Below, piece after piece: positions 28,710 to 45,875 of a stretch of DNA of 47,537 nucleotides; the stretch's first letter is position 1; the number at the start of each line of letters is the position of its first letter. This DNA is from Dehalococcoidia bacterium. Lineage in GTDB: Bacteria; Chloroflexota; Dehalococcoidia; GIF9; AB-539-J10. Under the pieces are notes generated by a model, which had not been told where the DNA came from, did not search any database, and worked only from the letters and a program-made list of their open reading frames with translations. The stretch spans positions 1 through 47,537 of the forward strand of contig JAWOFK010000079.1 in assembly GCA_046497565.1 (NCBI GenBank), given 5' to 3'. A program made the position numbers and the translations under genes.

Positions 28710-31700
28710 ATGACTCTGGAAGTAACAAGGCGAGGGTTTTTCAAACTCAGCGGTGCAACTGCGGCTGCTGCTGCATTGACCGCAGTAGGCGTGCGTAAGG
28801 TATCCGCCGCTACAGGGGAGCCACTACGCATCAGGTACACAAAGGAATACCATACTGTCTGCACCTTCTGCGGAGTGGGCTGTGGGGTTATATGTAATGT
28901 TCAGGATGGCGTGATTGTCAACGCTGAGGGTGATCCGGATCATCCCATCAACGAGGGCACTCTGTGCAGCAAGGGTAGCTCGCACTACAACATCTCCTAC
29001 ATCTATGATGAAAAAGGCGTACCGAGGCCCAATCCCAAGCGGCTGACCCATGTTCTGTACCGTGCCCCCGGCAGCAACAGCTATGAAGTCAAGGATTGGG
29101 ACTGGGCGCTGGACACTATTGCTGAGCGGATCAAAGACACCCGCGACAGAAGCCTGGTTGAGTCGGTAAGTGTCGATGGCAAGCAGGTAACCGTAAACCG
29201 GACGGAAGCCATCGGCTGGCTGGGCAGCGCTTTCTGCACCGACGAAGAGAACTATCTGTTCCACAAGATGGGCCGGGCCATGGGGGTGATCAATATCGAT
29301 CACTGCGCCCGCCTCTGACACTCTACCACGGTCGCCGGTCTCGGCGCCACATTCGGTAGAGGTTGCATGACCAACCACTGGATTGACTACCGCAACACAG
29401 ATGTCTTTATGAATATCGGCGGCAATACTGCCGAGAACCATCCCGTTTCTATGAAATGGATTGAGAAGGCCCGGGAAACCAAGGGAGCCAAGCTTATAGT
29501 AGTCGACCCCCGTGTTTCGCGCACCGCCGCAGTGGCGGATCTTCACGTGCGCATACGTCCCGGTACGAACATTGCATTTCTGGGCGGACTCATGAATTAC
29601 ATACTCCAGAATGAGCTCTACCACAAAGAGTACGTGGAGCATTACACCAACGCTTCTTTCCTGATTGAGGAAGGGTTCGATTTCAACGAGGAATTCGGTC
29701 TTTTCTCCGGTGTTGAGGATGACCCGGTGCGCAGCGCCAAGAAATACGACCGGCAAACATGGCAGTACAGGAAAGATGAAGGTGGAAGCATACTGAAGGA
29801 CCCGACCCTGGAGGACCCACACTGCGTCATGCAGTTAATGAAGAAACACTACAGCAGATACACCATGGAGAATGTCAGCAAGATCACCGGCGCTTCTCCA
29901 GAGTCTCTGCAGCAAGCATACGCGCTATTCAGCACTACCGGTCAGCCCGGCAAAGCCGGTAGCATTCTCTATGCCATGGGTATTACCCAGTTTACCCACG
30001 GTGCGCAGAATGTGCGGGCAGTTGCCATGGTGCAGTTGCTCCTGGGCAACATGGGTATTGCCGGGGGTGGAGTAAATGCCCAGCGGGGCCAGTCCAACGT
30101 GCAGGGTTCAACGGATATGGCCATACTCTACCATATCATCCCCGGATACATGGCCACTCCTCAGCAGGCGAAGCACGCTACCCTGGCCGATTATCTTGAG
30201 GTTGAAACACCGGCTACGGGCTGGTGGTCCAACAAGCCCAAATACCTGGTTAGCCTGCTCAAAGCTTTCTATGGCGATAATGCCACTGCGGCTAATGAGT
30301 TCGCCTACCAGTGGCTGCCCAAGCTGGACGGCCTTGACCATTCGCACATCGCCATGTATCGGGATATGGGCGAGGGCAAGGTGGAAGGATTCATCTGCTG
30401 GGCCGACAACCCGGCTGTATCCGGACCGAGCGCCTCGGCAAAACGCAACTATCAGAAGAACCTCAAGTGGCTGGTATCTGTGGATATGTTTGAAAATGAA
30501 ACCGCTTCCTTCTGGCAAGCCCCCGGAATGAACCCCGCTGAAATTGATACTGAGGTCTTCATTCTGCCGGCTGCCGCCGGTTATGAACGCGAGGGCAGCA
30601 AGGCCAACAGCGGCCGCTGGATCCAGTGGGCCTGGAAGTGCCAGGACCCACCCGGAGAAGCCAAGTCAGACCTGTGGATTGTCAATGAGCTGTTCAAGAG
30701 GCTGCAAAAGCTTTATGAAACTAAGGGCGGTGTTGTTCCGGAGCAGATCAGCAAGATGTTCTGGGACTACGATGGCCCCAACGGCGAAATAGACGTCGTC
30801 AAGGTCTGCAAAGACGTTAATGGTTACAGAGTTAATGATGGCTCTCTGGTGACCAACTTCGTCGGTTTGCAGGCTGATGGCTCGACTGCCTGTGGCAACT
30901 GGCTCTACAGTGGTTACTACAACAACTACGATAATCCGGCCACCAAGCACCGGGTCAGAGAGATAGAGGGGATCGGTTCCAACCTGGGCTGGTCCTTTGC
31001 CTGGCCTCTCAACAGGCGCATTGTTTATAACCGTGGGTCCTGCGACCCGGAAGGCAAACCCTGGAACCCGAACGCTGCCGTTATCTGGTGGGATGCAGCC
31101 CAGCAGAGATGGGTCGGTAACGATATACCGGACATTCCGGGCACCTGGACTTTGAAGCAGTCGACAGAGAATCCATTCATTATGCTGCCGGAGGGCGTGG
31201 GCCGGCTCTTCTCAATTGGAGCACTGGCTGACGGTCCTTTGCCCACCCATTACGAACCGGCGGAAAGCCTTGTGCCGAACCTGCTATATCCGCAGGCTAC
31301 CTATAACCCGGTCAGCCAGAGGTTTTATGAGGACCATACGGTGGAAACCGATGCCGAACGGGCCAGATATCCCTATATCATTACCACTTACCGCGTGGTC
31401 GAGCACTACCAGTCGGGCATCGTGACCCGCAACATACCCTGGCTGAACGAACTGATGCCGGAGATCTTCGTCGAGCTCAGTGAGGAACTGGCCGCTGAAC
31501 TGGGAATTGAGAACGGAGATTGGGTTCTATTAGAGAGCAAGCGCCTTTACAAGGATGGCACGCAGGGCAATATCAAGGTTAAAGCCTGCGTTACCAGGCG
31601 TATCCAGCCGATGATGATTAACGGGGAGAAGAGACACGTTGTGGGGTTACCCTGGCACTGGGGCTACAAAGGCTTGAGTACGGGGGCCATTGCCAACGAC

Positions 31701-31778
31701 TTGAGCCCCTCGGTTGGAGATGCAAATACGACTATTCCTGAGTCCAAGGCGTTTTTGTGCAATGTAAGGAGGGCATAA
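28710..31778 (+). CDS. fdhA: Tat-exported Mo/W formate dehydrogenase alpha subunit, selenoprotein (Sec at TGA 29316-29318)
   Basis: Twin-Arg TRRGFFK; CTFCGVGC..C cluster; DHCARL-U-HSTTVAGL read in frame through the TGA joins ORFs 28710-29318 and 29367-31778; RGQSNVQG; WPLNRR (FdnG type). Confidence 0.96.
29321..29361 (+). promoter_or_regulatory. SECIS element of fdhA
   Basis: Lower stem CTCTACC/GGTAGAG, apical CGCCG-GTCT-CGGCG directly 3' of the TGA. Confidence 0.75.
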
Positions 31779-31781
31779 TAG

Positions 31782-32564
31782 ATGGCTCAAGCAATGTGTT
31801 TAATTGACGCCTCCAAGTGTATCGGTTGTCGGGCATGTCAGGTGGCATGTAAGCAGTGGAATCAGTTGCCGGCTGAGGAGACGACCTTCACGGGCAGCTA
31901 TGAAAACCCGCCGCGGTTTTCCAGCAACACGTGGTGCCGGGTTGTCTTCCGCGAGCACGGGGACAACGGCAGGGTTGACTGGCTGCTGTCGAAACAGGGC
32001 TGCATGCACTGCACCGATGCAGCCTGTATGCAGGCCTGTCCGGTCGGTGCTATCTACCGCACCGCCTTCGGTACGGTCAATATCGATCAGCTCAAGTGCA
32101 TCGGCTGCAACTACTGTGTCGTGGCCTGCCCGTTCGGCGTAATCGGCTTCGACCGCCGTACCAACAAAGCAAGGAAGTGCACATTCTGTGTCGACCGCTT
32201 AGAAAACGGACTACAGCCGGCCTGTGCTTTTGTGTGCCCGACAGGCTCCATAACCTTCGGTGATGCATCGGACCTTGTTCCACAGGCGATGGATAGAGTC
32301 GATCAGCTCAGAGCTGCCGGCAAGGTCAGTGCCAATGTATACGGTCTGGAAGAGGTTGACGGAACGGCCATGCTTTATGTGCTGGCCGATGAGTCTGAAA
32401 AATATGGGCTTCCTGCTGATCCCGAGGTATCGTTACAGACCCGTGTCTGGGACGTCATCTTCAAGCCTGTGCGCGCACTCGTCGTGGTGGCAGTGCTCTT
32501 TGGACTATGGGCCACCCGTTCGCGGAGCAAGCAACTTGAACAGGCCAGGAGAGAATCCAAATAA
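31782..32564 (+). CDS. fdhB: Formate dehydrogenase 4x[4Fe-4S] beta subunit with C-terminal membrane anchor (FdnH-like)
   Basis: CIGCRACQVAC, CMHC..AC..ACP, CIGCNYC..ACP, CTFC..PAC..CP; hydrophobic ALVVVAVLFGLW. Confidence 0.92.
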   Translation: MAQAMCLIDASKCIGCRACQVACKQWNQLPAEETTFTGSYENPPRFSSNTWCRVVFREHGDNGRVDWLLSKQGCMHCTDAACMQACPVGAIYRTAFGTVNIDQLKCIGCNYCVVACPFGVIGFDRRTNKARKCTFCVDRLENGLQPACAFVCPTGSITFGDASDLVPQAMDRVDQLRAAGKVSANVYGLEEVDGTAMLYVLADESEKYGLPADPEVSLQTRVWDVIFKPVRALVVVAVLFGLWATRSRSKQLEQARRESK

Positions 32565-32581: not shown

Positions 32582-33898
32582 GTGGAAGTTAAACAGTTTG
32601 TCGGCGGAATTCGTGTTCCCCACTATAAGAGCTTTACTGAACACAAGGAGATTAGAGAAGCCTCTCTGCCGAAAGAGGTCACCATACCACTCTTGCAGCA
32701 TACCGGTGCTCCCAACCTGCCGCTGGTGAAAGTGGGCGATAGAGTCAAAGCGGGGCAGATGATAGGTGCTACCGACAAGTTAGTGAGCGCTCCTGTCCAC
32801 GCCAGCCTCTCCGGTACCGTAGCTGCCATAGAGCCCCGGCCCTGTTTTACCGGGGAAATGCTCCAGAGCATCGTTATCACCGTTGATAGGGACCAGGACA
32901 AACCGGAGTGGGCTGACCTTGATGTCGATAAGGTCACCAGGGAGGAAGCCGTGAAGATGGTGCGGGAAGCGGGCATTGTCGGCATGGGCGGGGCTGCCTT
33001 CCCGACAGCGGTCAAACTCAGTCCCCCGCCGGGCAAGAAGGTAGACACGCTGCTCATTAATGGATGCGAATGTGAGCCGTTCCTGACCTGCGATCACCGG
33101 CTGATGGTTGAACAGCCCGAGAAGCTGCTGCCAGGAGTCCAGTTGCTGATGAAAATGCTCGGGGTTGAGAGAGCTTACATCTGCATAGAGGGCAACAAGC
33201 CCGATGCCATCGAAGCACTGCGGCGAAAGAACGATGACCCGCGGATAGTTCTGCTGAAGATGCCCACCAAGTACCCCCAGGGTTCGGAAAAGCACCTGGT
33301 CAAAGCAGCCATCGACCGTGAAATCCCCTCCGGTGGGCTGCCGTTTGACGTGGGTGCTTTGATTCAGAATGTGGGCACCTGCGTTGCCATTTACGAAGCA
33401 GTCAAACATAGAAAACCGCTTATCGAGCGGGTTGTAACCGTAACCGGACAGAACATCAGGGATCCGCAGAACCTGCTGGCCAAAATCGGCACCCCGCTCA
33501 GCCATTTGATCGCGGAGTGCGGCGGCATCGTAGAGCAGCCGGCCAAAGTCGTCGTCGGCGGACCGATGACCGGCAAAGCGCAGCATACCCTTGACGCGCC
33601 GGTGGTTAAGGGAACCACCGGAGTAGTCGTGCTTCCGCCGGAGCTGGCCATCGAAGACATGGAATACTCTGACTGCGTGCGCTGCTGCAAGTGTGTCGAG
33701 CACTGTCCCATGATGCTCTACCCCAACGAGATAAGCATTTACTGTGAGGCAGGCATGGTTGCAGAGGCAGCAAAATGGAATACGATGGACTGCATTGAGT
33801 GTGGAATATGCGCCTATGTATGTCCCTCCAAGCGGCCTATCGTCCGGTGGGTCCAGCGCACCAAGCCATTAATCCAGCAGCTTCAGAGCAGAAAGTGA
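32582..33898 (+). CDS. rnfC: RnfC (FMN/NAD-binding, 2x[4Fe-4S])
   Basis: PLLQHTGAP, HASLSGTV, GIVGMGGAAFPT, NGCECEPFLTCD, KYPQGSEK, GGPMTG, CIECGICAYVCPS. Confidence 0.94.
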   Translation: MEVKQFVGGIRVPHYKSFTEHKEIREASLPKEVTIPLLQHTGAPNLPLVKVGDRVKAGQMIGATDKLVSAPVHASLSGTVAAIEPRPCFTGEMLQSIVITVDRDQDKPEWADLDVDKVTREEAVKMVREAGIVGMGGAAFPTAVKLSPPPGKKVDTLLINGCECEPFLTCDHRLMVEQPEKLLPGVQLLMKMLGVERAYICIEGNKPDAIEALRRKNDDPRIVLLKMPTKYPQGSEKHLVKAAIDREIPSGGLPFDVGALIQNVGTCVAIYEAVKHRKPLIERVVTVTGQNIRDPQNLLAKIGTPLSHLIAECGGIVEQPAKVVVGGPMTGKAQHTLDAPVVKGTTGVVVLPPELAIEDMEYSDCVRCCKCVEHCPMMLYPNEISIYCEAGMVAEAAKWNTMDCIECGICAYVCPSKRPIVRWVQRTKPLIQQLQSRK

Positions 33899-33930: not shown

Positions 33931-34911
33931 GTGAGTACTACCGAAAAGCTCGTATTCTCAGCATCCCCTCACCTTAAAGATAAAGGAACCGTGTCAACAG
34001 CCATGCGGGATGTATTCATCGCCCTGTTACCCGTCACGGCGGCTGCCATATACTTCTTTCGCTGGTATGCTGTTTTCACCATTGCGGTTTCTCTAATTAC
34101 CGCCGTGCTAACCGAGCTCCTGTTCAGGAGACTGATGAGCAAAAAGCCCAGCCTGAATGACTGGAGTGCTCTGGTGACCGGTCTATTCGTGGCGCTCCTG
34201 TTTCCGGCTACCGCCCCGTGGTGGACGGTAGTCATTGCCAGCTTTCTTGCCATCGGCATTGCCAAGGAGCTGATGGGAGGGCTGGGCTGGAACCTCTTCA
34301 ATCCGGCTCTTTTTGGCAGGGTGGCTGTGATCCTCCTGGCGCCCTGGCTGGCCTATGTTTCAGGGTGGTTTGCACCGCTGAGCGTCAACCTCGGCCCGGT
34401 AGATGCTCTAACCCAGGCCACGCCGCTGGCCATGCTGCACATGGGTGCGGCGGAGATGCCAGCTGTGAGCCGGCTTTTCGTAGGCTTTCCTGCCGGGGCC
34501 CTATGTGAAGTGTCGCCACTGCTGGTACTCGTCGGGGCAGCCTACCTTTTCTACAGGGGACATATCACCTGGCGTATTCCGGCATCCATTCTGGCTACGG
34601 TTCTGGTTCTGACCGCAATTTTTGGGCAAAACCCTATATACCACATTGCTACCGGGGGAATCATGATCGGTGCATTCTTTATGGCCACCGACTGGGTAAC
34701 CAGCCCGTTTACTGACAGGGGCAAATTAATCTTCGGCGTCGGGATCGGGGTTCTGATTGTCGTTTTCCGGCTCGCGCTTGCGCCGACAGAAGGGGTTGCT
34801 TTTGCCATCTTGATCATGAATGCTTTTGTGCCCCTGCTTAATAGGAAGACAGCGCGCCCGCAGTTCGGTCACATTAAAGCCGTTGCTGTTCCGATGGCCG
34901 AGAAGGAATAA
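33931..34911 (+). CDS. rnfD: RnfD membrane subunit (flavinylation target)
   Basis: SPH, GGLGWNLFNPA, DALTQATPL (FMN-Thr motif), GAFFMATDWVTSP, EGVAFAILIMN. Confidence 0.94.
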   Translation: MSTTEKLVFSASPHLKDKGTVSTAMRDVFIALLPVTAAAIYFFRWYAVFTIAVSLITAVLTELLFRRLMSKKPSLNDWSALVTGLFVALLFPATAPWWTVVIASFLAIGIAKELMGGLGWNLFNPALFGRVAVILLAPWLAYVSGWFAPLSVNLGPVDALTQATPLAMLHMGAAEMPAVSRLFVGFPAGALCEVSPLLVLVGAAYLFYRGHITWRIPASILATVLVLTAIFGQNPIYHIATGGIMIGAFFMATDWVTSPFTDRGKLIFGVGIGVLIVVFRLALAPTEGVAFAILIMNAFVPLLNRKTARPQFGHIKAVAVPMAEKE

Positions 34912-34961
34912 GCGGTTAGGCGAAATCGTATAACGAAGGAAGGTAAGGAAAGGAGGGGACT

Positions 34962-35141
34962 ATGCTGGGTCGTCCGGGACCATGGGAGATCGCGCTTATC
35001 CTGGTGATTGTCTTGATTGTGTTCGGCGTTGGCAAACTCCCGCAGGTAGGCGAGGCTATCGGTAAGGGAATGCGGGCGTTCCGCAAGGCGCAGACCGGCC
35101 AAGATGAGGCCGATGAGGATAAGCATAAGGAAACAAAATAA
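34962..35141 (+). CDS. tatA: TatA (59 aa, absent from the ORF track)
   Basis: RBS AGGAGG; [43 protein letters not shown]. Confidence 0.93.
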
Positions 35142-35278
35142 TCCAGGAATACTACTGCCAGCCAAGCTGCTACTAGCTGAACTGTACCTTCAACTCGTAA
35201 CTCTACGGGGGTACAGGTCGCCATATCAGGAATAACTCAGGTTAAGGGGAGAACGCGGCGAGGTAAGGGGAGCGAATA

Positions 35279-35488
35279 ATGAATCTTATTGGCGTGGGGG
35301 AACTATTACTGCTCCTCATCATTGCTTTGCTGGTATGGGGGCCGGGAAAGATAGCGGAGTTCGGCAAGACGCTGGGGAAAACGATACGCTCTGTAAACAA
35401 AGCGAGCTCTGACCTGACAGCACGGGTAACCAGAGAATTCGACATAGAAGAAGAAGCCCGCCCACCTAACCCGGAACACAGGAATTAG
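35279..35488 (+). CDS. tatB: TatA/TatB-family subunit
   Basis: IGVGELLLLLIIALLVWGPGKIAEFGKTLGK. Confidence 0.75.
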   Translation: MNLIGVGELLLLLIIALLVWGPGKIAEFGKTLGKTIRSVNKASSDLTARVTREFDIEEEARPPNPEHRN

Positions 35489-35563
35489 TCATCAGGAAAA
35501 ACGGGGTTAGTAACCGCTGGGAGGAAAAGACTGCAATATCCGGGTTCATATACTATGTGAGGA

Positions 35564-36310
35564 ATGAATGTGAGAGGACCAGCCACGGGCGAGGCCCAGA
35601 AACCCGTGTCCATTCTCGTGCACTTGGCTGAGCTGCGAAAGCGTCTGCTCAGGAGTGTAATCGTCGTGGCTATTGCCACCGTCCTGGCCTTCGTGTTTTA
35701 TCACCAAATATTTGATATCCTGCTCTATCCCGCCGGCGAGATGGACCTCATCTTCGTGGAGATGACCGAGATGATCGGCACCATCTTCCGAGTGTGCCTG
35801 GCTGTCGGCATCATGCTGGCCGTCCCCTACCTGACCTATGAGTTCATTATGTTCGTCTCGCCAGCCCTCACGTCCAGGGAGAAGAGGTACGTCTATTTTA
35901 TCCTGCCCTGGATTGCTATCATGTTTGCTGCGGGAGTTGTCTTCGGCTATTTCATTCTGACTCCCCCGGCGATCAAGTTTTTGCTCGGTTTTGGGGGCGA
36001 TATAGCCGATGCGCAGATAAGAATTGGCAACTATATTCCGGTGGTGACCAAGCTGCTTCTGGTCACCGGGCTCATTTTTGAGGTGCCGGTGTTGACCACG
36101 TTCCTGGCCAGGATCGGCGTCGTCTCCGGCAACTGGCTGGCCAGCAAGCGTAAGATAGTAATAGTCGGCGCGTTTCTCCTGGCTGCCATACTTACGCCTC
36201 CCGACATTCTAACCCAGATAATGCTGGGCCTGCCACTGATTGCCCTCTACGAACTCAGCATCTGGCTGGCGCGGCTCGTCGGCAAGAAGAGGCAGAGTGC
36301 CCAAGCCTAG
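35564..36310 (+). CDS. tatC: Tat translocase TatC
   Basis: HLAELRKRL, FVSPAL..EK, FEVP, AAILTPPD, LYELS. Confidence 0.95.
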   Translation: MNVRGPATGEAQKPVSILVHLAELRKRLLRSVIVVAIATVLAFVFYHQIFDILLYPAGEMDLIFVEMTEMIGTIFRVCLAVGIMLAVPYLTYEFIMFVSPALTSREKRYVYFILPWIAIMFAAGVVFGYFILTPPAIKFLLGFGGDIADAQIRIGNYIPVVTKLLLVTGLIFEVPVLTTFLARIGVVSGNWLASKRKIVIVGAFLLAAILTPPDILTQIMLGLPLIALYELSIWLARLVGKKRQSAQA

Positions 36311-38456: not shown

Positions 38457-40646
38457 ATGGAAAGACCAGAGAAACGAAACGATGAAGGCTTCGCGCAGGT
38501 AGGTATCGGTCAAACCGCCGCTACCATCCTGGGAACTGTCTTCTGGCTTATTGTGGCCTTGATGCTGCACCCGGTAGCGTACGGTCATCTGGCCTGGTTG
38601 GTATCCATAGCAACGCTTGTCTCCGCACTCTGTGGCTTAGGTCTGGGAACGATGATAGCCACCTATTACCCAAGGGAGGAAAACAAGAGATTGCTGAGCA
38701 CCTCCGTATTCCTGACTTTGCTGGCCAGCGGCGTGGGCGGGATTGTAACTGCCGTAGTCTTGAACCTATCGGTAGATTCATCTTTGGCCACCCTGGTCGG
38801 TTTGCTGGTTGTAGCATTATCGATGTTCTCCATGGCCTTCTACTCGGAACTGGGGAAGCGAGAGTATAAGAAATACATGTGGATGTGGATAGGTGTGCGG
38901 GCGGCAACGCTGATTCTTCCATTGACCTTCTACCTGCTGTGGGGAACGGTCGCCGGATTGCTGGGAGGGATGATAGCAGGCTATTTTTTGTTCGGAACGT
39001 TGGTTCTGAAGCACCTGGGCAACGGCCTGAAATTTGCGGATGTAAGGAGAAAGACGGGTTTCTCCGCAAGGGCGTGGGCCTCCAATATGGCAATAGCTTC
39101 GCTGAACTTCCTTGATAAGATACTTATCGGCGTCCTTTTCCCGCTCGGCTTCCTGGCAATCTATCAATTCAGTTTCCGGATTTTCCTCCTTCTGGCGATT
39201 CTGCCCAACACCCTGTTCTTTTACCTGCTCCCCGAGAGGTCCGGCGGGGGCGATGTCAAGAAACTCGAGAGAGCTGGAATCCTCCTGTCTGTAGCCCTGG
39301 CCGTTGCCATCTTCTTCCTTGCGCCCTACATCACTTCTCATGTCTTCCCCGGCTACCGCGAAGGTATCGACACGATAAGGATAATGGGCCTTGCCATAAT
39401 CCCGGCGACCATCGCCAGGATAAGGTCCTCGCGATTGTTTTCGGAAGAGAAGCCGGCCGTGGTTCTCGGCTCGAACCTGTTCGGCCTGGCGATCGGGATT
39501 ACGTGCATAATCATGACCTTCACCCAGGGACTGGGACTCATAGGCTTGGCAGTCAGCATGCTGGCCAGCCAGGTCGGACTGCTCGGCGGGCTTTTTCTCA
39601 TCCCCAAGCTCCTCAGATTTGGCTTTCCGGGGAGAATAGGGTTGAGCTTCATTGTGGTAATCGTGGCATCTGCCCTGATTATGAGTACTCTCGGCATCAT
39701 TTCCCCACAGATAACCGTAAGAAAGGACAGGGTGATAGGAACCGGTGGGGCAATGGATACCAGGGTAACCATCACAGTATTGGCCGATGACGAAGAAGAC
39801 GTCAGACAGGCCAAAGAAGCAATCAGTGCGGCTTTCCGCGAGATTGACCGAGTTGAGAAACTCATGAGCGCCACCGATCCGGATAGCGAGATTTACCGGC
39901 TAAACAACAGCGGAACGCAATGGGTGGAGCTATCACCGGAAGTCATCTATATCCTGAAGAAGTCTCAGGAGTACAGCGTCCTGACAGACGGTTGTTTCGA
40001 TGTTACGGTGAAGCCGCTGGTCGATTTCTGGATGAAGGAGGTGAAGAGGTCGGGCAAGATGCCGACGGGTGACGAATTATCCCAATACCTTGAGCTGGTT
40101 GATTACCGGAATCTGATAATAGATGAGGACAACAACAGGGCCAGGTTCAACAGGGACGGAATGGAGGTTACTCTCGGTGGTATAGCTAAGGGATATGCCG
40201 TCGACCGAGCCTGTGAGGTTCTGAAGGGCGGCGGCATCGAGGAGGCTCTGGTAGATATCGGCGGCGACATCAGAGCCATAGGAACAAAGTCGTGGAGGAT
40301 TGGCATACGTGATCCCCGTGCTGAAGAGGTGCTGGTAGACATCGAGTTGGAGAATAAGGCCATAGCTACATCCGGCGACTACGTAAGGTATCACCTCCTG
40401 AAAGGAGCCGAGCTGGTTCATCACATCATTAACCCGAAAACCGGTGCACCGGCGAGAGATTCCATAAGCGTCACCATTGTCGCCCAAGACAGCCTAACTG
40501 CCGACGCTCTCAGTACAGGGGTTTTTGTTATCGGGCCCGAGAAAGGAAGGGTGTTATTGGATTTAATCAGGGTTGGGGGGTTGATAGTCGGTCCCGAAGG
40601 AGAGATAATAACATCGGAATACTGGGGTTACGACATAGCCCGGTGA
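38457..40646 (+). CDS. apbE: Fusion: Wzx/MOP-superfamily membrane transporter (N-term) + ApbE FAD:protein FMN transferase (C-term)
   Basis: About 410 aa multi-TM region with flippase-like start and DKILIG motif; then AMDT, DSEIYRLN, FDVTV.PL, LGGIAKGYAVD, GGDI, ATSGDY, HHIINPKTG, ADALST in one uninterrupted frame. Confidence 0.9.
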   Translation: MERPEKRNDEGFAQVGIGQTAATILGTVFWLIVALMLHPVAYGHLAWLVSIATLVSALCGLGLGTMIATYYPREENKRLLSTSVFLTLLASGVGGIVTAVVLNLSVDSSLATLVGLLVVALSMFSMAFYSELGKREYKKYMWMWIGVRAATLILPLTFYLLWGTVAGLLGGMIAGYFLFGTLVLKHLGNGLKFADVRRKTGFSARAWASNMAIASLNFLDKILIGVLFPLGFLAIYQFSFRIFLLLAILPNTLFFYLLPERSGGGDVKKLERAGILLSVALAVAIFFLAPYITSHVFPGYREGIDTIRIMGLAIIPATIARIRSSRLFSEEKPAVVLGSNLFGLAIGITCIIMTFTQGLGLIGLAVSMLASQVGLLGGLFLIPKLLRFGFPGRIGLSFIVVIVASALIMSTLGIISPQITVRKDRVIGTGGAMDTRVTITVLADDEEDVRQAKEAISAAFREIDRVEKLMSATDPDSEIYRLNNSGTQWVELSPEVIYILKKSQEYSVLTDGCFDVTVKPLVDFWMKEVKRSGKMPTGDELSQYLELVDYRNLIIDEDNNRARFNRDGMEVTLGGIAKGYAVDRACEVLKGGGIEEALVDIGGDIRAIGTKSWRIGIRDPRAEEVLVDIELENKAIATSGDYVRYHLLKGAELVHHIINPKTGAPARDSISVTIVAQDSLTADALSTGVFVIGPEKGRVLLDLIRVGGLIVGPEGEIITSEYWGYDIAR

Positions 40647-40816: not shown

Positions 40817-41287
40817 ATGTTTATTAACTGGGAAAGGTTTGTGGGCAATGTCAGAGAACAGGGTATTAGGCGGATTGTGGCCATATTCCTCATCGTCATG
40901 CTCAGCGTGCTTATCGTGTCATCCGTGCCTGGCCTGGTTATGGTTTTTCGAGAGGAGCTATTGGCAGAGCCGCGCTGGGTGATGGACACTCACAAAATAC
41001 CCATCGTCCTCGACCTCGTCCTCTGGATACTGATTGCCATCGAGTTGATGGACTCAATCAGGATCTATATTGCGAGACATATTCTACATCTGGAGACGGT
41101 GATTTCCCTGGCAATGATTGCCCTGGCACGGAAGATTATCACCCTGAAGCTGAGCGCGTACGAACCGGTCACCATCCTGGGCGTTGCAGCTCTGGTGGTA
41201 GGTACCGCACTTGCTTACTACTTCGTCCGGAAGAGTCACAAAGAACACGGGATGCAGGGGGTACACGGGCTCGAAGATGAAGATTAG
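40817..41287 (+). CDS. PsiE-like membrane protein
   Basis: Four hydrophobic segments; LIAIELMDSIRIY, IALARKII. Confidence 0.75.
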   Translation: MFINWERFVGNVREQGIRRIVAIFLIVMLSVLIVSSVPGLVMVFREELLAEPRWVMDTHKIPIVLDLVLWILIAIELMDSIRIYIARHILHLETVISLAMIALARKIITLKLSAYEPVTILGVAALVVGTALAYYFVRKSHKEHGMQGVHGLEDED

Positions 41288-41442
41288 TACCAGGCCATTT
41301 TCGGACCCGGATTTCTTTAGGTGTGGTTATGCTGCTATTATTGTCACTGGCCGCCCTATGACTTCCATAACAAGGGTTATCTGAGGCCAATCCTAGTTAG
41401 AGTGCCCAGTCGGAACAAGAGCATAATTGAAGGGGGAAAAGA

Positions 41443-41664
41443 ATGAAAGCAATCGGCCAAGCATATATGGCATATCGAGAGGCACGCAAAGAGCTCGAAG
41501 ACAAGGCGGGCGAGTATTGGGACATTACATGGGTGGCTTCGGGGGTGCCTGTCGTTCTGCCTAAGAACGCACTAACAATCTCTGGTAGAAAGGAATTGTT
41601 CAGGCTGGCCAGAAAAGTGGAGAGAAAACTGCAGATGTTTATGATTGAACTTGATCGCGGATAG
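41443..41664 (+). CDS. Hypothetical small protein
   Basis: Purine-rich RBS, fills an intergenic gap; no recognised motif. Confidence 0.45.
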   Translation: MKAIGQAYMAYREARKELEDKAGEYWDITWVASGVPVVLPKNALTISGRKELFRLARKVERKLQMFMIELDRG

Positions 41665-41886
41665 TTACATATCTACCAGATTGTATCAATTATCCCCCAC
41701 GCAGCACCGACGCGGTTTATCGCTGAAAACCGCCCCGCTCGTAATCAAAGCTAAATGGCGTAATCAACTCTTTATTCTGACGCAGAAGCACTGCGCTCCC
41801 CAAAAAGTCTTTTCAAACCAAGAACGTTGTGCTATATTAGGCATCGTACCTTTTTAAAGCCAATGAAGCCTCAAAGCAAGGCGAAT

Positions 41887-42417
41887 ATGTGGCAAAACGC
41901 GAGGGGTTATTGGAAAGAGTATGTCACTTTTTTCCTCCTTTTCGTATTCTGGATTATTATCACTGCATCCTTCTCGCCGCGTAAGATAGTTGCGGGCCTG
42001 ATAAGTTCATTCTTGGCCGTGCTCCTGGTCAGGCTGATCTTCCGCATAAAGTTGCCTGAACAGATCACCCCCCTCTTCTTGATACGCTTCCCTGTCTTCC
42101 TGGCCATATTGGCCTGGGAGGTGATTAAGGCCAACATCAATCTGGCGTGGATACTGATAAGGCCGCGTCTTCTCATTGACCCGACGATAGTAAGATTCAA
42201 AAGTGAACTACAAGAAGACTTCAGGAGGACAATTGTCGCCGACACAATAACGGTCACTCCCGGGACCCTCACCCTGGATGCTCAAGGTGACGAACTTCTG
42301 GTGCATTGCCTGGCACCTTCTCATAAGAAGGGCCTGCTGGAGGAAAGACAGCCTGAGCGCCTGGTGCTATGGCTCTTCGGGCAAGAAGGCCAATCCATTA
42401 AGGGGATAAACAGTTGA
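41887..42417 (+). CDS. mrpE: Na+/H+ antiporter subunit E
   Basis: EVIKANINLA, ITVTPGTLT, LLVH; start uncertain (41863 possible). Confidence 0.88.
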   Translation: MWQNARGYWKEYVTFFLLFVFWIIITASFSPRKIVAGLISSFLAVLLVRLIFRIKLPEQITPLFLIRFPVFLAILAWEVIKANINLAWILIRPRLLIDPTIVRFKSELQEDFRRTIVADTITVTPGTLTLDAQGDELLVHCLAPSHKKGLLEERQPERLVLWLFGQEGQSIKGINS

Positions 42418-42695
42418 ATATCTTTTTGACGGGTACAGCTATATTTGTGGTGGTAAACGCCTTCATATGCCTGTACAGGGCGATAAAAGGCCCCACCATA
42501 CAGGACCGGCTGCTCACTCTCGCCATAGTCGGTAGCAGTATGTTAGCGGTTTTGGTACTGCTAGCCTCCATTTTCAAGAGCTCTATCTATCTGGATGTTG
42601 CCATGCTGTTCGTGCTGTTGAATTTCATCGTCATGATCGTTGTATCGCGCTATCTGGAAACATACGACAAGGAGGTCAACAGGAGTGATCGCTGA
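42414..42695 (+). CDS. mrpF: Na+/H+ antiporter subunit F
   Basis: YRAIKGPTIQDR, YLDVA, SRYLE. Confidence 0.88.
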   Translation: MNIFLTGTAIFVVVNAFICLYRAIKGPTIQDRLLTLAIVGSSMLAVLVLLASIFKSSIYLDVAMLFVLLNFIVMIVVSRYLETYDKEVNRSDR

Positions 42696-43014
42696 TGTTT
42701 TCACAATCATTTTCCTGTTGATCGGATGTTTCTTCCTACTGGTAGTGACCATCGGAATATTCAGACTGCCGGACGCTTTCTCACGCCTGCATCTTACCAG
42801 CAAAGCCGACCCGATAGGCACAGTGTCAATATTCATAGCGGCGGCAATCTACAGCGGGTGGTCTTTTGATGTTCTGCGGCTTGCAGCTATCGGTTCCTTG
42901 CTGGTAGTGACCAGCGTCACTTCGAGCCATGCTATCGGACGTTCTGCTCTGAAGAAGAGGGCGAGCAAACCTGACGAAGAACCGACGCTGAAAAGGGAAG
43001 AGGAGAATGCTTGA
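42685..43014 (+). CDS. mrpG: Na+/H+ antiporter subunit G
   Basis: GIFRLPDAFSRLH..K, SHAIGRSA; GTG start after AGGAGG. Confidence 0.88.
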   Translation: MIADVFTIIFLLIGCFFLLVVTIGIFRLPDAFSRLHLTSKADPIGTVSIFIAAAIYSGWSFDVLRLAAIGSLLVVTSVTSSHAIGRSALKKRASKPDEEPTLKREEENA

Positions 43015-43249
43015 GGCACTTAATGTAATACTCCTGGTGGCGTTGATCGTAACTGCGCTGGCGGCCTGCCTGCTTCGTAACCTTCTGGCTGCGGTTTTCA
43101 TGCTTTCGGCCTTCAGCCTTGTCATGGGCTTAGTGTGGGTGATGCTGCGCGCTCCAGACCTCGCCCTGGCTGAAGTAGCGGCGATAGGAGTAGTATCCAC
43201 CATATTCTTTGTGGTCACTATTTCTAGGACCGAGAGGAGGGAAGAGTGA
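43007..43249 (+). CDS. DUF4040 / MbhD-like Mrp subunit
   Basis: LRAPDLALAE motif. Confidence 0.85.
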   Translation: MLEALNVILLVALIVTALAACLLRNLLAAVFMLSAFSLVMGLVWVMLRAPDLALAEVAAIGVVSTIFFVVTISRTERREE

Positions 43250-44001
43250 AGAGGGTTCTGGCGCTACTCTTTACCGGTGCACTGGCCGTGGTTCTCCTCT
43301 ATGTGGTGGCGCTCTTACCCCCCATGGGAGATGCCGAGAATCCCACTAACCAGCATGTTGCCCCCCGCTATCTTGAGCACGGCCAGCAGGAAGCCGGTAC
43401 CAGAAATATCGTTACCGCCGTTGTTTTTAACTATCGTGGTTATGACACCATGGGGGAGGTGGCAATATTTAGTGCCGCTCTGGCCGGAGTTTTTGCCGTG
43501 CTCGGGTTGGGCAGAAGAAAGTTTGCCCGGGCCTCCATAGACCAGTCGGGAGTCAAATTCAGCTTCATCAGCAGGACTGCTGTAGTATTGCTTCTGCCGC
43601 TCATAATCATTTTTTCGATTTATATCATCCTTTACGGCATTGATTTGCCGGGCGGAGGGTTTCAGGGGGGCGCCATAATCGGAGCAGGGGTCATCAGTAT
43701 TACTATAACCTTTGGATACTACAGGGCACAGAGGCAGATACCACATCATGTGAGAACCATTCTGGAAAGCACTGCTATTTCGGCCTTCTTTGTGGTCGGC
43801 ACCGCCGGGGTTATCGGAGGAGCCAACTTCTTAACCATTACACTGCCCCAGCTTTCCACTCAGATTCAGCCACCTGTTCGAGAACTCATGTTGCTCGTAC
43901 TCCTGTTCGCCGTAGGCATCAAGGGAGGCATGGTATTTACTTCAATCCTTTTCGCCTTACTGAGAGAGGAAGAGACAAATGATGTGGAGCATGCTGCTTG
44001 A
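43246..44001 (+). CDS. mrpB: Na+/H+ antiporter subunit B
   Basis: NIVTAVVFNYRGYDTMGE, PGGGFQGG. Confidence 0.88.
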   Translation: MKRVLALLFTGALAVVLLYVVALLPPMGDAENPTNQHVAPRYLEHGQQEAGTRNIVTAVVFNYRGYDTMGEVAIFSAALAGVFAVLGLGRRKFARASIDQSGVKFSFISRTAVVLLLPLIIIFSIYIILYGIDLPGGGFQGGAIIGAGVISITITFGYYRAQRQIPHHVRTILESTAISAFFVVGTAGVIGGANFLTITLPQLSTQIQPPVRELMLLVLLFAVGIKGGMVFTSILFALLREEETNDVEHAA

Positions 44002-44341
44002 CAACATAAATTATGCGGTGGCCATGATCTTGTTCTGCATCGGATTCTATACAGTTATCGTGCGGAGCAACATCATCAAGCAAATAATCGGTCTGCTTGT
44101 TATGGAAGTCTCCGTATTCTTCTTTCTCGTATCAGTAGGGTATTTGGATGAAGGCGCGGCTCCCATAGTGATCCCGGGAGACACTCCCTCGCCAATGGTC
44201 AACCCACTTCCTCAGGCCATGATACTGACAGCCATCGTAATTGCGGTAAGTACTACCGCACTTTTCCTTTCACTTGCCCTTAAGTTTTACAGCCTCTACG
44301 GGACCTTAGATATGGATAAAGCAAAGGAAGATAAGCGCTAA
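43979..44341 (+). CDS. mrpC: Na+/H+ antiporter subunit C
   Basis: NIIKQIIGL, NPLPQAMILTAIVI. Confidence 0.9.
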   Translation: MMWSMLLDNINYAVAMILFCIGFYTVIVRSNIIKQIIGLLVMEVSVFFFLVSVGYLDEGAAPIVIPGDTPSPMVNPLPQAMILTAIVIAVSTTALFLSLALKFYSLYGTLDMDKAKEDKR

Positions 44342-44342
44342 G

Positions 44343-45875
44343 GTGGAGCTCCAGCATTTCGCCATATACGCCATAGTAACGCCGTTTTTTGCAGCAGTAT
44401 TAGTACCTATCATTACCCTGTGGAGAAAGAACTGGGGCATGCCCCTGGCCGGTCTAGCCCTGGCCGTCTCTCTCGTCTTGAGTGTCTTGCTAGTCCCGCA
44501 CGTTCGGGCAGCAGGGTACCTGAGCTATCATCTGGGTGCCTGGGAGCCGCCGTTTGGCATCGAAATCAGGATTGATTTCCTGGGAATCATCATGATGGTT
44601 CTTATCTCAGCGATTTCCCTGATTGTGGCCATATACTCACTGAGATATATTTCACCCGAACAGGCCAAACAGGAGAAAACCTTCTTCTTCTTCGGCGAAG
44701 AGATGGAGGAGAGCAAAAGGCCTTTCTACTACTCTCTTTATCTGGTCCTTTCTGCTGCCATGCTGGGTTTTGTCGCCGCCGGGGATATCTTCAACATGTT
44801 TGTCTTCATGGAACTCGGGGGGATTTGCTCCTACGCCCTGGTAGCCATACCGGGGGTCAGATTGTCCATAAGGGCGGCGATTAAATACATGCTCATGGCA
44901 GTACCTGCCGCAATGCTGGTCCTTCTGGCCATAGGCCTACTATACTCGGTAACAGGCACCTTGAACATGGCTGACCTTGCCCAGAGACTCGGCTCTTCTG
45001 AGTACAGTCAGGTGATTACCGTGTCGTACGTGATTATGATCGTGGGGTTCGCGGCTAAGGCTGCCATTTTCCCCCTGCACATGTGGCTTCCCGATGCCCA
45101 TAGTAAGGCGCCATCTCCCATAAGTGCCCTGCTGTCCGGCCTGATTGTCAAGGTGCTTGTTTTTGCAATTATACGCGTTACCTTTTCGGTATACGAAGCA
45201 TATTTCCCTTCGCCCTTAAGCTGGGTCACCAACGTTGCGATGTGGGTAGCAGCGGCTGCCATTATATATGGAGCGATCATGGCAATTATGCAGAAGGATT
45301 TCAAGATTATGATTGCCTATAGCACGGTAATGAATTTGGGCTATATCGTCTTGGGGTTGGGCCTGGCAGATGTGACCGCGCTGGTTGGAGGTACGTATCA
45401 TATCCTGGGTCATGCGCTTGCCAAGTCGTGTTTCTTTCTCTGTGCAGGTTCAATCATCTCACAGTCAGGTTACCGGACGATTGATGACCTCAAAGGGGCT
45501 GCCAGGAGAATGCCGGCGACCTGTGCAGCTTTTGCCCTTGCCTCCCTTTCCATAGTGGGCATACCTCCAACAGCCGGCTTTGTCGGCAAATGGTACCTCG
45601 TGTGGGGCAGTCTGAACACAGGCAATGTTTTTCTGGGGGTGGTGGTCCTCGTGGGAAGCGTTTTGGCGGCGGTATACTGCTTCAGGGTGGTATATTACAT
45701 GTTCTTCCTGCCTCCCGCAGATGGGTCCTGGCAAGAAGTTTCCGGAGAGGCCCCTGCTGCCATGGTCGTACCCACCTGGATTTTGGCAGCCGGAACGCTT
45801 GTGCTGGGCATTCTTTCGCTGTGGATTCTGCCCCCCTTGAGGGAAGCGATAGAGTCTCTAATGTTATCTGGCTGA
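44343..45875 (+). CDS. mrpD: MrpD-like antiporter subunit
   Basis: GDIFNMFVFME, K.AIFPLHMWLPDAH, IAYST, GIPP.AGF.GK. Confidence 0.9.
   Translation: MELQHFAIYAIVTPFFAAVLVPIITLWRKNWGMPLAGLALAVSLVLSVLLVPHVRAAGYLSYHLGAWEPPFGIEIRIDFLGIIMMVLISAISLIVAIYSLRYISPEQAKQEKTFFFFGEEMEESKRPFYYSLYLVLSAAMLGFVAAGDIFNMFVFMELGGICSYALVAIPGVRLSIRAAIKYMLMAVPAAMLVLLAIGLLYSVTGTLNMADLAQRLGSSEYSQVITVSYVIMIVGFAAKAAIFPLHMWLPDAHSKAPSPISALLSGLIVKVLVFAIIRVTFSVYEAYFPSPLSWVTNVAMWVAAAAIIYGAIMAIMQKDFKIMIAYSTVMNLGYIVLGLGLADVTALVGGTYHILGHALAKSCFFLCAGSIISQSGYRTIDDLKGAARRMPATCAAFALASLSIVGIPPTAGFVGKWYLVWGSLNTGNVFLGVVVLVGSVLAAVYCFRVVYYMFFLPPADGSWQEVSGEAPAAMVVPTWILAAGTLVLGILSLWILPPLREAIESLMLSG

Follow-up and report, generated by a model that had tools for sequence, protein, structure and literature searches.

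A Wzx-fold flippase domain joined to ApbE in one polypeptide: a possible FAD exporter feeding a tethered flavin transferase

Introduction

How FAD reaches ApbE is the question raised by the locus described here, as ApbE acts outside the cytoplasm while FAD is made inside. To our knowledge, the characterised FAD exporters comprise only MATE proteins in some Gram-negatives and ECF-type systems in Firmicutes. The FAD source for ApbE was called "an open issue" in an excerpt of a 2017 kinetic study (PMC5655446), and the supply pathways "are still obscure" in the words of a 2025 review (PMC12052999).

The window analysed is a contig of 47,537 nucleotides from a Dehalococcoidia bacterium. A sequence-only reading of it had pointed to one gene in which a flippase-like membrane domain is joined to ApbE, and had proposed that the membrane domain exports FAD to its fusion partner. 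Proteins of this kind currently carry the labels "O-antigen/teichoic acid export" and "thiamine biosynthesis lipoprotein". A literature search, which did not extend to the large tables supplementing PMC8238504, returned no published description of a flippase–ApbE fusion.

The Fusion Gene and Its Neighbourhood

The features of the locus are collected in Table 1. The fusion ORF starts with ATG and codes for 729 residues with no internal stop in translation, and the AlphaFold2 model of the whole protein has a mean pLDDT of 87.9 and a pTM of 0.83. ORF, Pfam and model together confirm that a single frame holds a Wzx-like multi-TM domain and an intact ApbE domain, as had been read from the sequence. 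The start of ApbE had been placed at about nt 39730; the domain was indeed found there, with its Pfam boundary 23 bases further on. The pTM hints that the two domains are fixed relative to each other, though this is not counted as evidence. The prediction of a complex between the flippase domain (residues 1–392), the soluble ApbE domain (420–729) and FAD gave a score of 0.00, with no verdict returned.

Table 1. Features of the fusion gene and of its neighbourhood in the window.
Feature	Position	Strand	Basis
Whole fusion gene, MOP/Wzx-type domain, TM13, ApbE	38457..40646	+	ORF, Pfam, AlphaFold2, relatives
12-TM Wzx/PST-type (MOP-fold) domain, residues 14–383	38496..39605	+	hydropathy, positive-inside count, Foldseek
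Cytoplasmic K/R loop and TM13, residues 384–416 (predicted)	39606..39704	+	K+R count, unfused ApbE comparison
ApbE (FAD:protein FMN transferase) domain, residues 433–702	39753..40562	+	Pfam, phmmer, fold
RnfD-like membrane subunit	33931..34911	+	Pfam NQR2_RnfD_RnfE, E 2.3e-98
RnfC-like subunit (RnfC_N, Nuo51 FMN-binding, SLBB and Fer4 domains)	32582..33898	+	Pfam
Formate dehydrogenase alpha subunit with Tat signal	28710..31778	+	Pfam TAT_signal, Molybdop_Fe4S4, Molybdopterin, Molydop_binding
Fe-S subunit, FdhB-like, Fer4_11	31782..32564	+	Pfam
tatA/B-like ORFs	34962-35141, 35279-35488	+	Pfam TatA_B_E, E 1.3e-18 and 6.3e-13
tatC	35564-36310	+	Pfam TatC, E 6e-62

The end of rnfD (34911) lies 3546 bases upstream of the fusion gene, matching the 3.5 kb given earlier, and the tat ORFs (34962..36310) stand between the two. 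The formate dehydrogenase alpha gene holds one in-frame TGA (nt 29316–29318, residue 203, ...ARL-U-HSTT... in the read-through translation), which is read as a selenocysteine codon; selB, selA and selD were found by Pfam adjacent to the formate dehydrogenase genes. The earlier remark that polysaccharide genes are absent nearby was borne out by a Pfam scan, in which none of the 45 ORFs of the window was a glycosyltransferase or sugar-nucleotide enzyme gene.

Recurrence of the Joined Frame

At least 94% of the fusion protein is covered by each of 78 other cluster representatives, at 39–86% identity, and these full-length relatives come from Dehalococcoidia, Acetothermia, Synergistota and Hadarchaeota. 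The same joined frame was found in 19 independent genome contigs from these taxa and from one labelled Micrarchaeota. The architecture is therefore present in relatives, and the junction, which the sequence-only reading had allowed might be an artefact, is genuine: short public contigs bridge it (39633–39753), with zero indels listed across the gene, these contigs being fragmentary and none spanning the whole gene. One low-depth X1 contig (depth 3.6) jumps 39798–39984 and is attributed to a different strain or to an oddity of assembly. Two close relatives that were candidates for natural split forms, P0031 and P0049, were dismissed; one is broken at residue 480, within ApbE, and the other at residue 363, in TM12, so that neither is split at the domain boundary, and both are frameshifted or truncated copies. 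As the fusion has a single origin (see below), part of the recurrence reflects inheritance and transfer and not repeated selection.

The ApbE Domain and Its Probable Client

Pfam assigns residues 433–702 to ApbE (PF02424) with E 2.2e-84 and 283.6 bits against a cut-off of 25.6, while NCBIfam PRK10461 gives 120 bits, under its equivalog cut-off of 498. With phmmer, the domain matched 1vrm (E 9e-52) as well as FmnB (7esa) and V. cholerae ApbE (6nxi), and the same three structures were retrieved by Foldseek at E of about 1e-17 to 7e-16 with TM-scores on target of 0.84–0.86. S639, H656 and D683, which are invariant in the alignment of 25 fusions, align with Ser241-His257-Asp285 of V. cholerae ApbE, named as the conserved triad in the excerpt of the 2025 review (PMC12052999). 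The domain thus appears to be a catalytically intact, putative FMN transferase. According to the same source, the substrate of ApbE is FAD and not FMN or riboflavin, and AMP is an inhibitor (PMC12052999).

RnfD of the window carries D158-A-L-T-Q-A-T164 (nt 34402–34422), followed by P-L. The site fits D-x-x-[S/T]-x-A-[S/T], with Q at the G position of D-x-x-[S/T]-G-A-[S/T]. At that position, the RnfD homologues showing the site have S in 10 cases, G in 8, T in 7, C in 3, Q in 2, and A and R in 1 each, as read from printed alignment rows. Profile searches of the genome, a draft in 102 contigs that is 92% complete, counted one ApbE (the fusion), one RnfD, and neither FMN_bind nor RnfA/E. RnfD is the sole recognisable client in this genome and so the likely one, which agrees with the earlier naming of DALTQ-AT-PL as target, the site being intact and the only candidate found. 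It is highly probable that the ApbE domain attaches FMN from FAD to the RnfD threonine and, in relatives with full Rnf, to RnfG as well.

Fold, Family and Signature of the Membrane Domain

The membrane domain has a marginal match to Pfam Polysacc_synt (PF01943; residues 16–249, E 1.5e-7, 31.6 bits against a cut-off of 28.2), which scored 35.6 bits in the whole-genome search and fell under the cut-off in many relatives. Polysacc_synt_3 matched residues 275–381 under its cut-off, no MatE (PF01554) match was found on the fusion protein at E ≤ 0.1 in Pfam, and NCBIfam gave nothing meaningful for the membrane domain alone. For residues 1 to about 415, the best Foldseek matches were the WzxE structures 9g95/9g9m (E about 7e-7 to 1e-6, 411–418 columns), with TM-scores on target of 0.70–0.72 at 14% identity, as against 0.54–0.62 for MATE structures. 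The domain had been described as Wzx/MATE-like; the Wzx/PST-type part of that description stands and the MATE part falls.

The family is small: at E ≤ 0.001 it numbers 453 among 1.84 billion representatives. The 25 fused membrane domains form one clade (SH-aLRT 100, stem 0.57) nested in a flippase-like family whose stand-alone members are apparently archaeal, the tree being unrooted and the taxonomy of the relatives sparse. Comparison of the 25 fused with 116 stand-alone sequences revealed a common core (W30, Y42-G43, D220-K221, Y236, P250, F297-P298 and P316) and a signature of the fused clade (Q19, H38, W47, W144, P155, R241 and F255). Arginine is present at position 241 in 100% of the fused sequences and in none (0%) of the 116 stand-alones, 97% of which have Q there. 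ApbE or Rnf was found at none of 42 stand-alone loci, a set built from six sequences, and sugar-nucleotide or glycosyltransferase genes are present at 4 of the 10 annotated ones. One stand-alone protein of 383 residues, P0125, lies inside the fused clade without R241, H38 and F255, and the ORF downstream of it presumably resembles UDP-GlcNAc 2-epimerase, judging by its motif. P0125 is read as a sister lineage that was never fused or as one that lost ApbE.

Topology and the Thirteenth Helix

Hydropathy and the positive-inside count over 25 sequences predict 13 TM segments in the fusion. In each of the 25, the predicted cytoplasmic loops contain 16–27 K+R and the outside loops 0–4, and loop 384–393 has a mean of 3.16. 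Among the 20 nearest unfused ApbEs, the threshold applied gives a single hydrophobic segment at the N-terminus in 19, followed directly by Cys in several of them, and the twentieth (L029) has an RR-type, signal-like N-terminus. The 12-TM domain is thus predicted to have both termini in the cytoplasm, and TM13, whose likely counterpart in unfused ApbEs is a signal anchor or a lipobox signal peptide, to recross the membrane and place ApbE outside. The prediction agrees with the outward-facing ApbE on which the sequence-only reading depended, by the positive-inside rule, obeyed in all 25 sequences, and by the homology of TM13 to the unfused signal anchors.

Linkage to Rnf

RnfC or RnfD is present at 8 of the 19 fusion loci. 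In three loci of Hadarchaeota (L007, L013, L016), Pfam showed an rnfCDGEAB-type operon adjoining the fusion, the RnfB part in L016 being a short tblastn match only, and a fourth, partial case (L032) has RnfB and RnfG beside it. In Synergistaceae (L012), RnfC, an RnfD-RnfG fusion and one RnfA/E-type gene are located beside the flippase–ApbE fusion, and in Acetothermia (L011) the fusion adjoins unrelated genes. No sugar genes were found beside the Pfam-annotated fusion loci of other phyla. Other Dehalococcoidia fusion genomes encode RnfA/E.

Among 31 order-level genomes, strong ApbE and RnfD matches occur in exactly the same 4. Among 41 family-level genomes, the membrane domain is confined to 2 genomes with the fusion and RnfD, plus one weak partial match, and the domain is likewise missing from a congener, 99% complete, that has neither ApbE nor RnfD. 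Of the co-occurrence with fdh-rnfCD envisaged earlier, the rnf linkage held; the link to fdh-rnfCD is peculiar to this genome, the fusion adjoining rnf operons in Hadarchaeota (L032 in part) and Synergistaceae.

FAD Export and Its Alternatives

We know of Wzx-type flippases for lipid-linked glycans and not for soluble nucleotides. In the mechanism that we propose, one polypeptide would combine a 12-helix transporter domain, a thirteenth helix leading out, and ApbE on the external side of the membrane. The membrane domain would have descended from an archaeal-looking, glycan-linked flippase-like family and, after a single fusion, have been re-tuned with the invariant R241, H38, W47, W144 and F255. 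It would move cytoplasmic FAD across the membrane and release it beside the tethered ApbE, which would use the FAD to put FMN on the threonine of D-A-L-T-Q-A-T in RnfD and would serve RnfG in relatives with full Rnf. With FAD released next to ApbE, the cofactor would not be lost from cells without a closed periplasm.

Putative FAD export and hand-over by a re-tuned membrane domain, after a single fusion event, is the best reading of these data, and we consider its chances to be about even; what we infer is that FAD is the substrate, that it is carried outward and that it is handed over. The fuller proposal is put forward a little more tentatively, at slightly less than even confidence: a Wzx-fold flippase turned putative FAD exporter would feed the tethered ApbE as the first one-polypeptide export-and-flavinylate machine, would have arisen once, probably in archaea, and would have moved with Rnf between archaea and three or more bacterial phyla, with R241, H38, W47, W144 and F255 as a putative FAD-binding signature. 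Several precedents are consistent with export. Bfe, a MATE exporter of the same fold class, exports FAD (PMC3551548), the colocalisation of EetB with ApbE was read as targeted delivery (PMC9973259), and for anionic substrates of Wzx proteins the cationic residues of the lumen are important (PMC3412221), each as described in the excerpts of these papers. In addition, an independent fusion of a CitMHS transporter with ApbE was found (P0106). Against FAD export, the Pfam and fold matches go to Wzx and not to the MATE flavin exporters.

The distribution of other exporters was also considered. Complementarity, in which fusion genomes are expected to have no MATE, was rejected: MatE matches occur in 16 of 19 fusion genomes (above cut-off in 13) versus 18 of 27 genomes with unfused, rnf-linked ApbE. 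In the genome of the window, whole-genome profile searches found no MatE, ECF-S (ECF_trnsprt) or ECF-T (CbiQ), and an argument for an exporter by elimination was downgraded; this absence weighs little, given a genome completeness of 92% and the MATE genes carried by both fusion genomes of the same genus. The 9 of 27 unfused-ApbE genomes with Rnf and no MatE indicate that FAD reaches ApbE by other routes there, so that logic alone does not demand a fused exporter.

This last point favours an anchor or assembly scaffold, in which the 12-TM domain holds ApbE and perhaps docks nascent RnfD/RnfG or the Rnf assembly site, FAD arriving by another route. Unfused ApbEs of the same clade manage with a single anchor, most fusion genomes have MATE genes, and the tight rnf linkage suits docking as well as supply. 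Nevertheless, from an anchor hydrophobicity alone would be expected, yet 24 positions are invariant across 25 sequences, even with identity as low as 39%, including the intramembrane polar or charged D220, K221 and Y236 common to free flippases and the newly fixed R241, H38 and Q19. Moreover, 12 helices far exceed anchoring needs. We regard a scaffold as unlikely, though well worth keeping in view.

The structural and evolutionary evidence for FAD export would serve equally for other flavin-related transport, namely FMN or riboflavin outward, or AMP, a product and known inhibitor of ApbE (PMC12052999), inward. The outward variant conflicts with the use of FAD, and not of FMN or riboflavin, by ApbE (PMC12052999), and transport of this kind appears distinctly improbable. 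Still less credit is given to a bifunctional protein whose membrane domain goes on flipping a lipid-linked glycan, the fusion being a selectively neutral chance event that has simply been inherited. In its favour, both Pfam and Foldseek lead to glycan flippases, the stand-alone relatives adjoin sugar genes and the transport-core residues are kept. However, glycan genes are absent from the 45 window ORFs and fusion loci adjoin rnf instead of sugar genes; within the family sample the domain is restricted to genomes with ApbE and RnfD and is missing from the 99%-complete congener; the clade-specific invariant substitutions lie on a long stem branch; and a natural split at the domain boundary was not seen. 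Finally, the joining of two genes by an assembly or frameshift artefact, which has nothing in its favour beyond the draft state of the genome in 102 contigs, is refuted by 78 full-length relatives and 19 independent loci in the same frame, the confident whole-protein model and the public contigs crossing the junction without indels.

Significance

A conserved fusion of ApbE with a transporter fold makes the FAD-supply question testable with one gene. This applies above all to archaea and to bacteria lacking a closed periplasm, from which unbound FAD would be lost by diffusion. If FAD export is true, the substrate range of Wzx-type proteins grows from lipid-linked glycans to a nucleotide cofactor, both of the labels now given to these proteins need correcting, and a compact part for flavin-tagging exported proteins becomes available. 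If the domain is only a scaffold, what results is a modest annotation note.

Comparison with Known Systems

The flippase–ApbE fusion is a variant of known protein kinds that bears on how FAD reaches ApbE. The known ApbE, Ftp and FmnB proteins (1vrm, 6nxi, 7esa) share with it the domain, the fold and the Ser-His-Asp triad. Like the fusion, for which this location is predicted, they are extracytoplasmic, and they are membrane-tethered with a gene beside rnf. Their tether is a lipid or one helix, whereas that of the fusion is a conserved 12-TM domain of transporter fold. The lipid III flippase WzxE and the Wzx/PST proteins resemble the fusion in fold, in the marginal Polysacc_synt match and in 12 TM segments with both ends inside. 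The fusion differs from WzxE by its 14% identity, the lack of glycan genes nearby, its membership of a small separate family (453) and invariants of its own, above all R241.

Bfe of Shewanella and YeeO of E. coli export FAD for periplasmic flavin use, the job proposed for the fusion, as described in excerpts of PMC3551548 and PMC5655446. They belong to a related fold class, but the fusion has no MatE match and matches the MATE fold more weakly (0.54–0.62). Moreover, they are free-standing and release flavin to the periplasm, while in the fusion the transporter-fold domain is joined to ApbE. The ECF-type exporter EetB/FmnA of Listeria, a monoderm, is linked to the ApbE-type FmnB with proposed FAD delivery (excerpt of PMC9973259). 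Its families are unrelated (ECF, ATP-driven) and its parts are separate polypeptides, and ECF-S or ECF-T was not detected in the genome of the fusion.

ApbE also occurs as one domain of a longer protein in its fusions with clients, such as the trypanosomatid fumarate reductase and FMN_bind-ApbE, as given in the excerpt of PMC12052999. An SBP–ApbE protein (P0320) was seen as well. In the client fusions ApbE is coupled to the protein that it serves, whereas the present one joins it to a transporter-fold domain, an arrangement for which the CitMHS–ApbE protein P0106 is the only other example seen here.

Architecture and Recurrence of the Fusion

The fusion gene encodes a membrane domain, a thirteenth transmembrane helix and an ApbE domain in one frame (Table). 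The AlphaFold2 model of its product, for which 25 aligned relatives served as input, is confident (mean pLDDT 87.9, pTM 0.83). In Foldseek searches against the PDB, the C-terminal part matched solved ApbE, FmnB and Ftp structures (best E ~1e-17 to 7e-16, TM-score on target ~0.85), while the top match of the N-terminal part was the lipid III flippase WzxE (E ~7e-7 to 1e-6, TM-score on target 0.70-0.72, 14% identity over 411-418 columns), followed by MATE transporters (TM-score on target 0.54-0.62). A Pfam scan of the protein gave no MatE match. The sequence-only reading had described a Wzx/MATE-like domain joined to an intact ApbE. The joined frame and the Wzx/PST affinity are upheld, but the MATE part of the description is not. 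The ApbE domain is indeed intact: Ser241-His257-Asp285, which an excerpt of PMC12052999 gives as the conserved centre in the V. cholerae enzyme, align with S639, H656 and D683 (phmmer against 6nxi), which are invariant in 25 fusions.

Features of the fusion gene and its surroundings (window coordinates, or residues of the 729-aa product)
Feature	Location	Strand	Content or basis
Fusion ORF	38457-40646	+	frame open over 729 codons
Polysacc_synt	residues 16-249		Pfam, 31.6 bits (cut-off 28.2)
Polysacc_synt_3	residues 275-381		Pfam, sub-threshold
Helix 13	residues 394-416		K384, R387, R393 ahead of helix
ApbE domain	residues 433-702		Pfam, E 2.2e-84
RnfD gene	33931-34911		single RnfD match in own genome
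Formate dehydrogenase-Rnf cluster	27700-36310		co-directional: FdhE-like gene, Tat-signal selenocysteine FdhA, FdhB (Fe-S), RnfC, RnfD, tatA/B x2, tatC
Cluster after the fusion	40817-47388		PsiE; Mrp/Mbh-type cation antiporter genes MnhE, F, G, MbhD/E, NuoK-like, two Proton_antipo_M
MvhD/FlpD-like cluster	19623-22929		MvhD/FlpD-like gene, two Fe-S proteins, NAD_binding_1/DHODB-type protein

Of the 120 matches listed from 5.8 billion clustered proteins, 79, counting the query, span 94% or more of the 729-residue product with identities of 39-100%; Dehalococcoidia, Chloroflexi, Acetothermia and Hadarchaeales are among the sources named. When one genome per species was scanned, the joined frame was found in 19 of the 80 loci listed, from Dehalococcoidia, Hadarchaeota/Hadesarchaea, Acetothermia, Synergistaceae/Synergistales and one genome labelled Micrarchaeota. 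Two shorter close relatives break within a domain and not at the domain boundary, and public contigs bridge the junction with no indels listed. On these grounds an assembly or frameshift artefact, a hazard foreseen for the fusion, is excluded.

A low-depth contig in the public sequencing run X1 (depth 3.6) skips 185 bases in the ApbE domain (window 39798-39984), probably reflecting another strain or an assembly quirk. The 796-aa fusion P0043 carries an insert of ~75 residues, rich in charged residues, between helix 13 and ApbE (columns ~501-576 of the alignment of 25 fusions), so the tether length is not fixed.

Membrane Topology

Hydropathy analysis places 13 hydrophobic segments before the ApbE domain. 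With the N-terminus assumed to be inside, the predicted cytoplasmic loops of the 25 aligned fusions hold 16-27 Lys+Arg per sequence versus 0-4 in the opposite loops. From this asymmetry both ends of the 12-helix core are predicted to be cytoplasmic, and helix 13 would bring the ApbE domain outside, where the initial reading had expected it. Inspection of the 20 nearest unfused ApbEs revealed, at the threshold applied, a lone N-terminal hydrophobic segment in 19; a Cys frequently comes next, resembling a lipoprotein signal. The twentieth (locus L029) has an RR-type signal-like N-terminus. Because the single segment is so common, helix 13 may be regarded as ApbE's own export anchor, and the fusion gene has the appearance of an entire apbE appended to a gene for a 12-TM flippase.

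Linkage to Rnf and the Probable Flavinylation Client

RnfC and/or RnfD were found by tblastn in 8 of the 19 fusion loci. By Pfam, a convergent rnfCDGEAB-type operon directly adjoins the fusion in three Hadarchaeota loci (L007, L013 and L016, the RnfB part of the last being a short tblastn match only), RnfB and RnfG adjoin it in locus L032, and rnfC, a fused rnfD-rnfG and an RnfA/E-type gene lie upstream on the same strand in the Synergistaceae locus L012. An Acetothermia locus (L011) has no rnf nearby and three RnfD-family matches elsewhere in its genome. RnfD occurs elsewhere in 3 of the 5 fusion genomes without rnf in the flank; the other two are MAGs of 0.7 and 1.1 Mb. The RnfD-RnfG fusion of the Synergistaceae locus is one 579-aa open frame (L012:6295-8034) with NQR2_RnfD_RnfE and FMN_bind, two genes upstream of the flippase-ApbE fusion.

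The expected co-occurrence with Rnf was observed in a sample from the window's order, in which strong ApbE and RnfD matches coincide exactly in the same 4 of 31 genomes and the sole ApbE-like match of a fifth is partial, at 22 bits; the genomes counted here and below are kin and samples, and the counts are descriptive, not statistics. The fusion is carried by three of the four, all from the window's genus (two of the three lie on cut contigs identical to loci L006 and L010); in the fourth, apbE-rnfC-rnfD is of the classical, unfused kind. A search with the membrane domain gave a match in 1 of 201 class-level genomes (own genome) and in 3 of 41 family-level genomes (own, a fused congener and one weak partial, E 9e-6), and none in a 99%-complete congener that lacks both ApbE and RnfD. 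From this distribution, the flippase-like domain is not a housekeeping component in the window's lineage and is present or absent together with ApbE and RnfD.

The own genome (1.87 Mb, 92% complete) has a single ApbE match, the fusion gene, and a single RnfD match; RnfG, RnfA, RnfE and the FMN_bind domain (RnfG/NqrC type) gave no match in it. This RnfD bears D-A-L-T-Q-A-T-P-L, and the published flavinylation motif is D-x-x-[S/T]-G-A-[S/T] (excerpt of PMC12052999). The G position varies as S, G, T, C, Q, A or R in RnfD homologues of the fetched loci, and TQAT is also present in the closest relative. Given the lone match, the absence of FMN_bind and a motif within natural variation, RnfD is the only recognisable client in the own genome, in agreement with the original proposal for the DALTQAT site. 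Taken together, context, co-occurrence, intact active site and predicted topology strongly support the view that an outer-face ApbE domain would flavinylate RnfD (RnfD and RnfG in relatives).

The gene selD lies just upstream of the formate dehydrogenase-Rnf cluster, with selA and selB on the opposite strand. This cluster and the absence of RnfG, RnfA and RnfE suggest an unusual module, independent of RnfABEG, in which RnfD would relay electrons from an exported formate dehydrogenase to cytoplasmic RnfC. A 2025 RNF/NQR review (PMC12174285) uses neither 'RnfCD' nor 'formate dehydrogenase' as a term. RnfA/E are present in two related genomes with the fusion, G005 and G006. Locus L002 of Dehalococcoidia keeps the arrangement acyl-CoA synthetase, fusion, PsiE, Mrp; in L005 the Mrp part is likewise conserved. 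The genes of the MvhD/FlpD-like cluster look like a small Hdr- or Mvh-associated group, and genes for beta-oxidation and for a branched-chain amino-acid ABC transporter are found upstream of it.

Origin and Signature Residues of the Membrane Domain

Only 453 of 1.84 billion representatives were related to residues 1-423 at E <= 0.001, and 301 of them reached <= 1e-10. The majority are stand-alone proteins of ~380 residues that match query positions ~10-380 at 25-42% identity, with names such as 'O-antigen/teichoic acid export membrane protein' and, in an Odinarchaeia MAG, 'lipopolysaccharide biosynthesis protein'. Six stand-alones led to 44 metagenome loci, two of them fusions; the other 42 gave no ApbE, RnfC or RnfD match. 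Among 51 flanking ORFs sampled from 10 stand-alone loci, Pfam identified archaeal housekeeping genes (archaeal-type ribosomal, RNA-polymerase, SBDS and exosome proteins, PaREP1) and, in 4 of the 10 loci, sugar-nucleotide or glycosyltransferase genes. At L093:1957-3288, near a stand-alone flippase-like gene, a type I phosphodiesterase/nucleotide pyrophosphatase family protein is encoded.

A quick maximum-likelihood tree (LG+G4, midpoint root for drawing only) was computed for the 25 fused domains plus 59 of the 117 stand-alones that are 360-420 residues long; every second one was taken, and 58 were left out for speed. All fused domains fall in one clade (SH-aLRT 100, stem 0.57 changes per site), which includes the stand-alone P0125. 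When the 25 fused were contrasted with 116 stand-alone sequences, W30, Y42-G43, G62, D220-K221, Y236, P250, F297-P298, P316 and G363 proved common to both groups. The fused domains are distinguished by R241 (100%; stand-alone Q 97%, R 0%), H38 (stand-alone H 0%), W47 (stand-alone Y), W144 (W 1%), P155 (P 5%), F255 (F 3%) and Q19 (stand-alone N); P0125 still has Q241 and possesses neither H38 nor F255. The shared core, the fused-clade residues and the state of P0125 indicate that the transport core is retained and that, when the fusion arose, a group of positions became fixed anew. Three aromatic rings and, in helix 8, a positive charge are among the gains; FAD itself is a negatively charged diphosphate and contains two aromatic systems. 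The signature residues may line the membrane-domain cavity; in the Wzx lumen, cationic residues are reported to mediate translocation of an anionic substrate (excerpt of PMC3412221).

Role of the Membrane Domain

It was proposed that the membrane domain exports FAD and hands it over to the tethered ApbE. We favour this role as plausible, midway between doubt and acceptance, because the fusion is conserved over two domains of life with both halves constrained, the geometry suits the need, and the glycan context is lost while cavity-type residues are re-fixed. The presence of RibF indicates that the own genome makes FAD. Several fusion carriers, the archaea and Dehalococcoidia, would be without a closed periplasm, and by this reasoning tethering would be useful to them.

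On the opposing side, soluble substrates are not known for Wzx proteins. MATE complementarity, the discriminating test, failed: 16 of 19 fusion genomes have MatE matches, in 13 of them above cut-off, which is no rarer than in genomes with unfused, rnf-linked ApbE (18 of 27). Both same-genus fusion genomes have such matches. MatE, ECF-S and ECF-T matches are absent from the own genome at 92% completeness, which says little since MatE is common in fusion genomes. The nine unfused ApbE+Rnf genomes without MatE imply that other FAD routes exist.

The main rival, a membrane domain serving as anchor or assembly scaffold, is rather unlikely in view of 24 invariant membrane-domain positions, buried polar and charged ones among them. 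Carriage of a different flavin-related cargo appears improbable. Retention of an unrelated glycan-flipping role agrees with the family name, conflicts with gene context and distribution, and is very improbable.

Comparison with Known Systems

The ApbE of the fusion is canonical; its conserved partner, of transporter fold, is new. The architecture is not described in the full-text literature searched, including work on flavinylation, Wzx/MOP and Hadarchaeota ApbE/Rnf. 'Flippase' and 'Polysacc' do not occur in the main text of the eLife survey (PMC8238504), the 2025 ApbE review (PMC12052999), the 2024 mSystems paper (PMC11334425) or the RNF/NQR review (PMC12174285), where 'fused' refers to client fusions only. 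The small supplementary files of PMC8238504 do not contain the architecture; its large tables, outside the search, could list it. The joining of a Wzx-type domain to ApbE would surprise a specialist, and it turns the open question of FAD supply into a one-gene experiment.

Other long ApbE architectures combine ApbE with solute-binding-protein domains (P0320), FMN_bind, or carbohydrate-binding or beta-helix modules, and P0322-P0324 (789-800 aa) have ApbE as sole annotated domain.

FAD export by the membrane domain is further favoured by three parallels. The 793-aa protein P0106, seen on 3 contigs (longest 13.5 kb), joins a CitMHS membrane domain of the ion-transporter superfamily (64-410) to ApbE (487-772) by Pfam, and is an independent fusion of a second, unrelated transporter family. 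Bfe and YeeO provide the related-fold MATE precedent for flavin export (excerpts of PMC3551548 and PMC5655446). In Listeria, an ECF-type exporter gene colocalises with apbE, for which targeted delivery was proposed by the authors (excerpt of PMC9973259).
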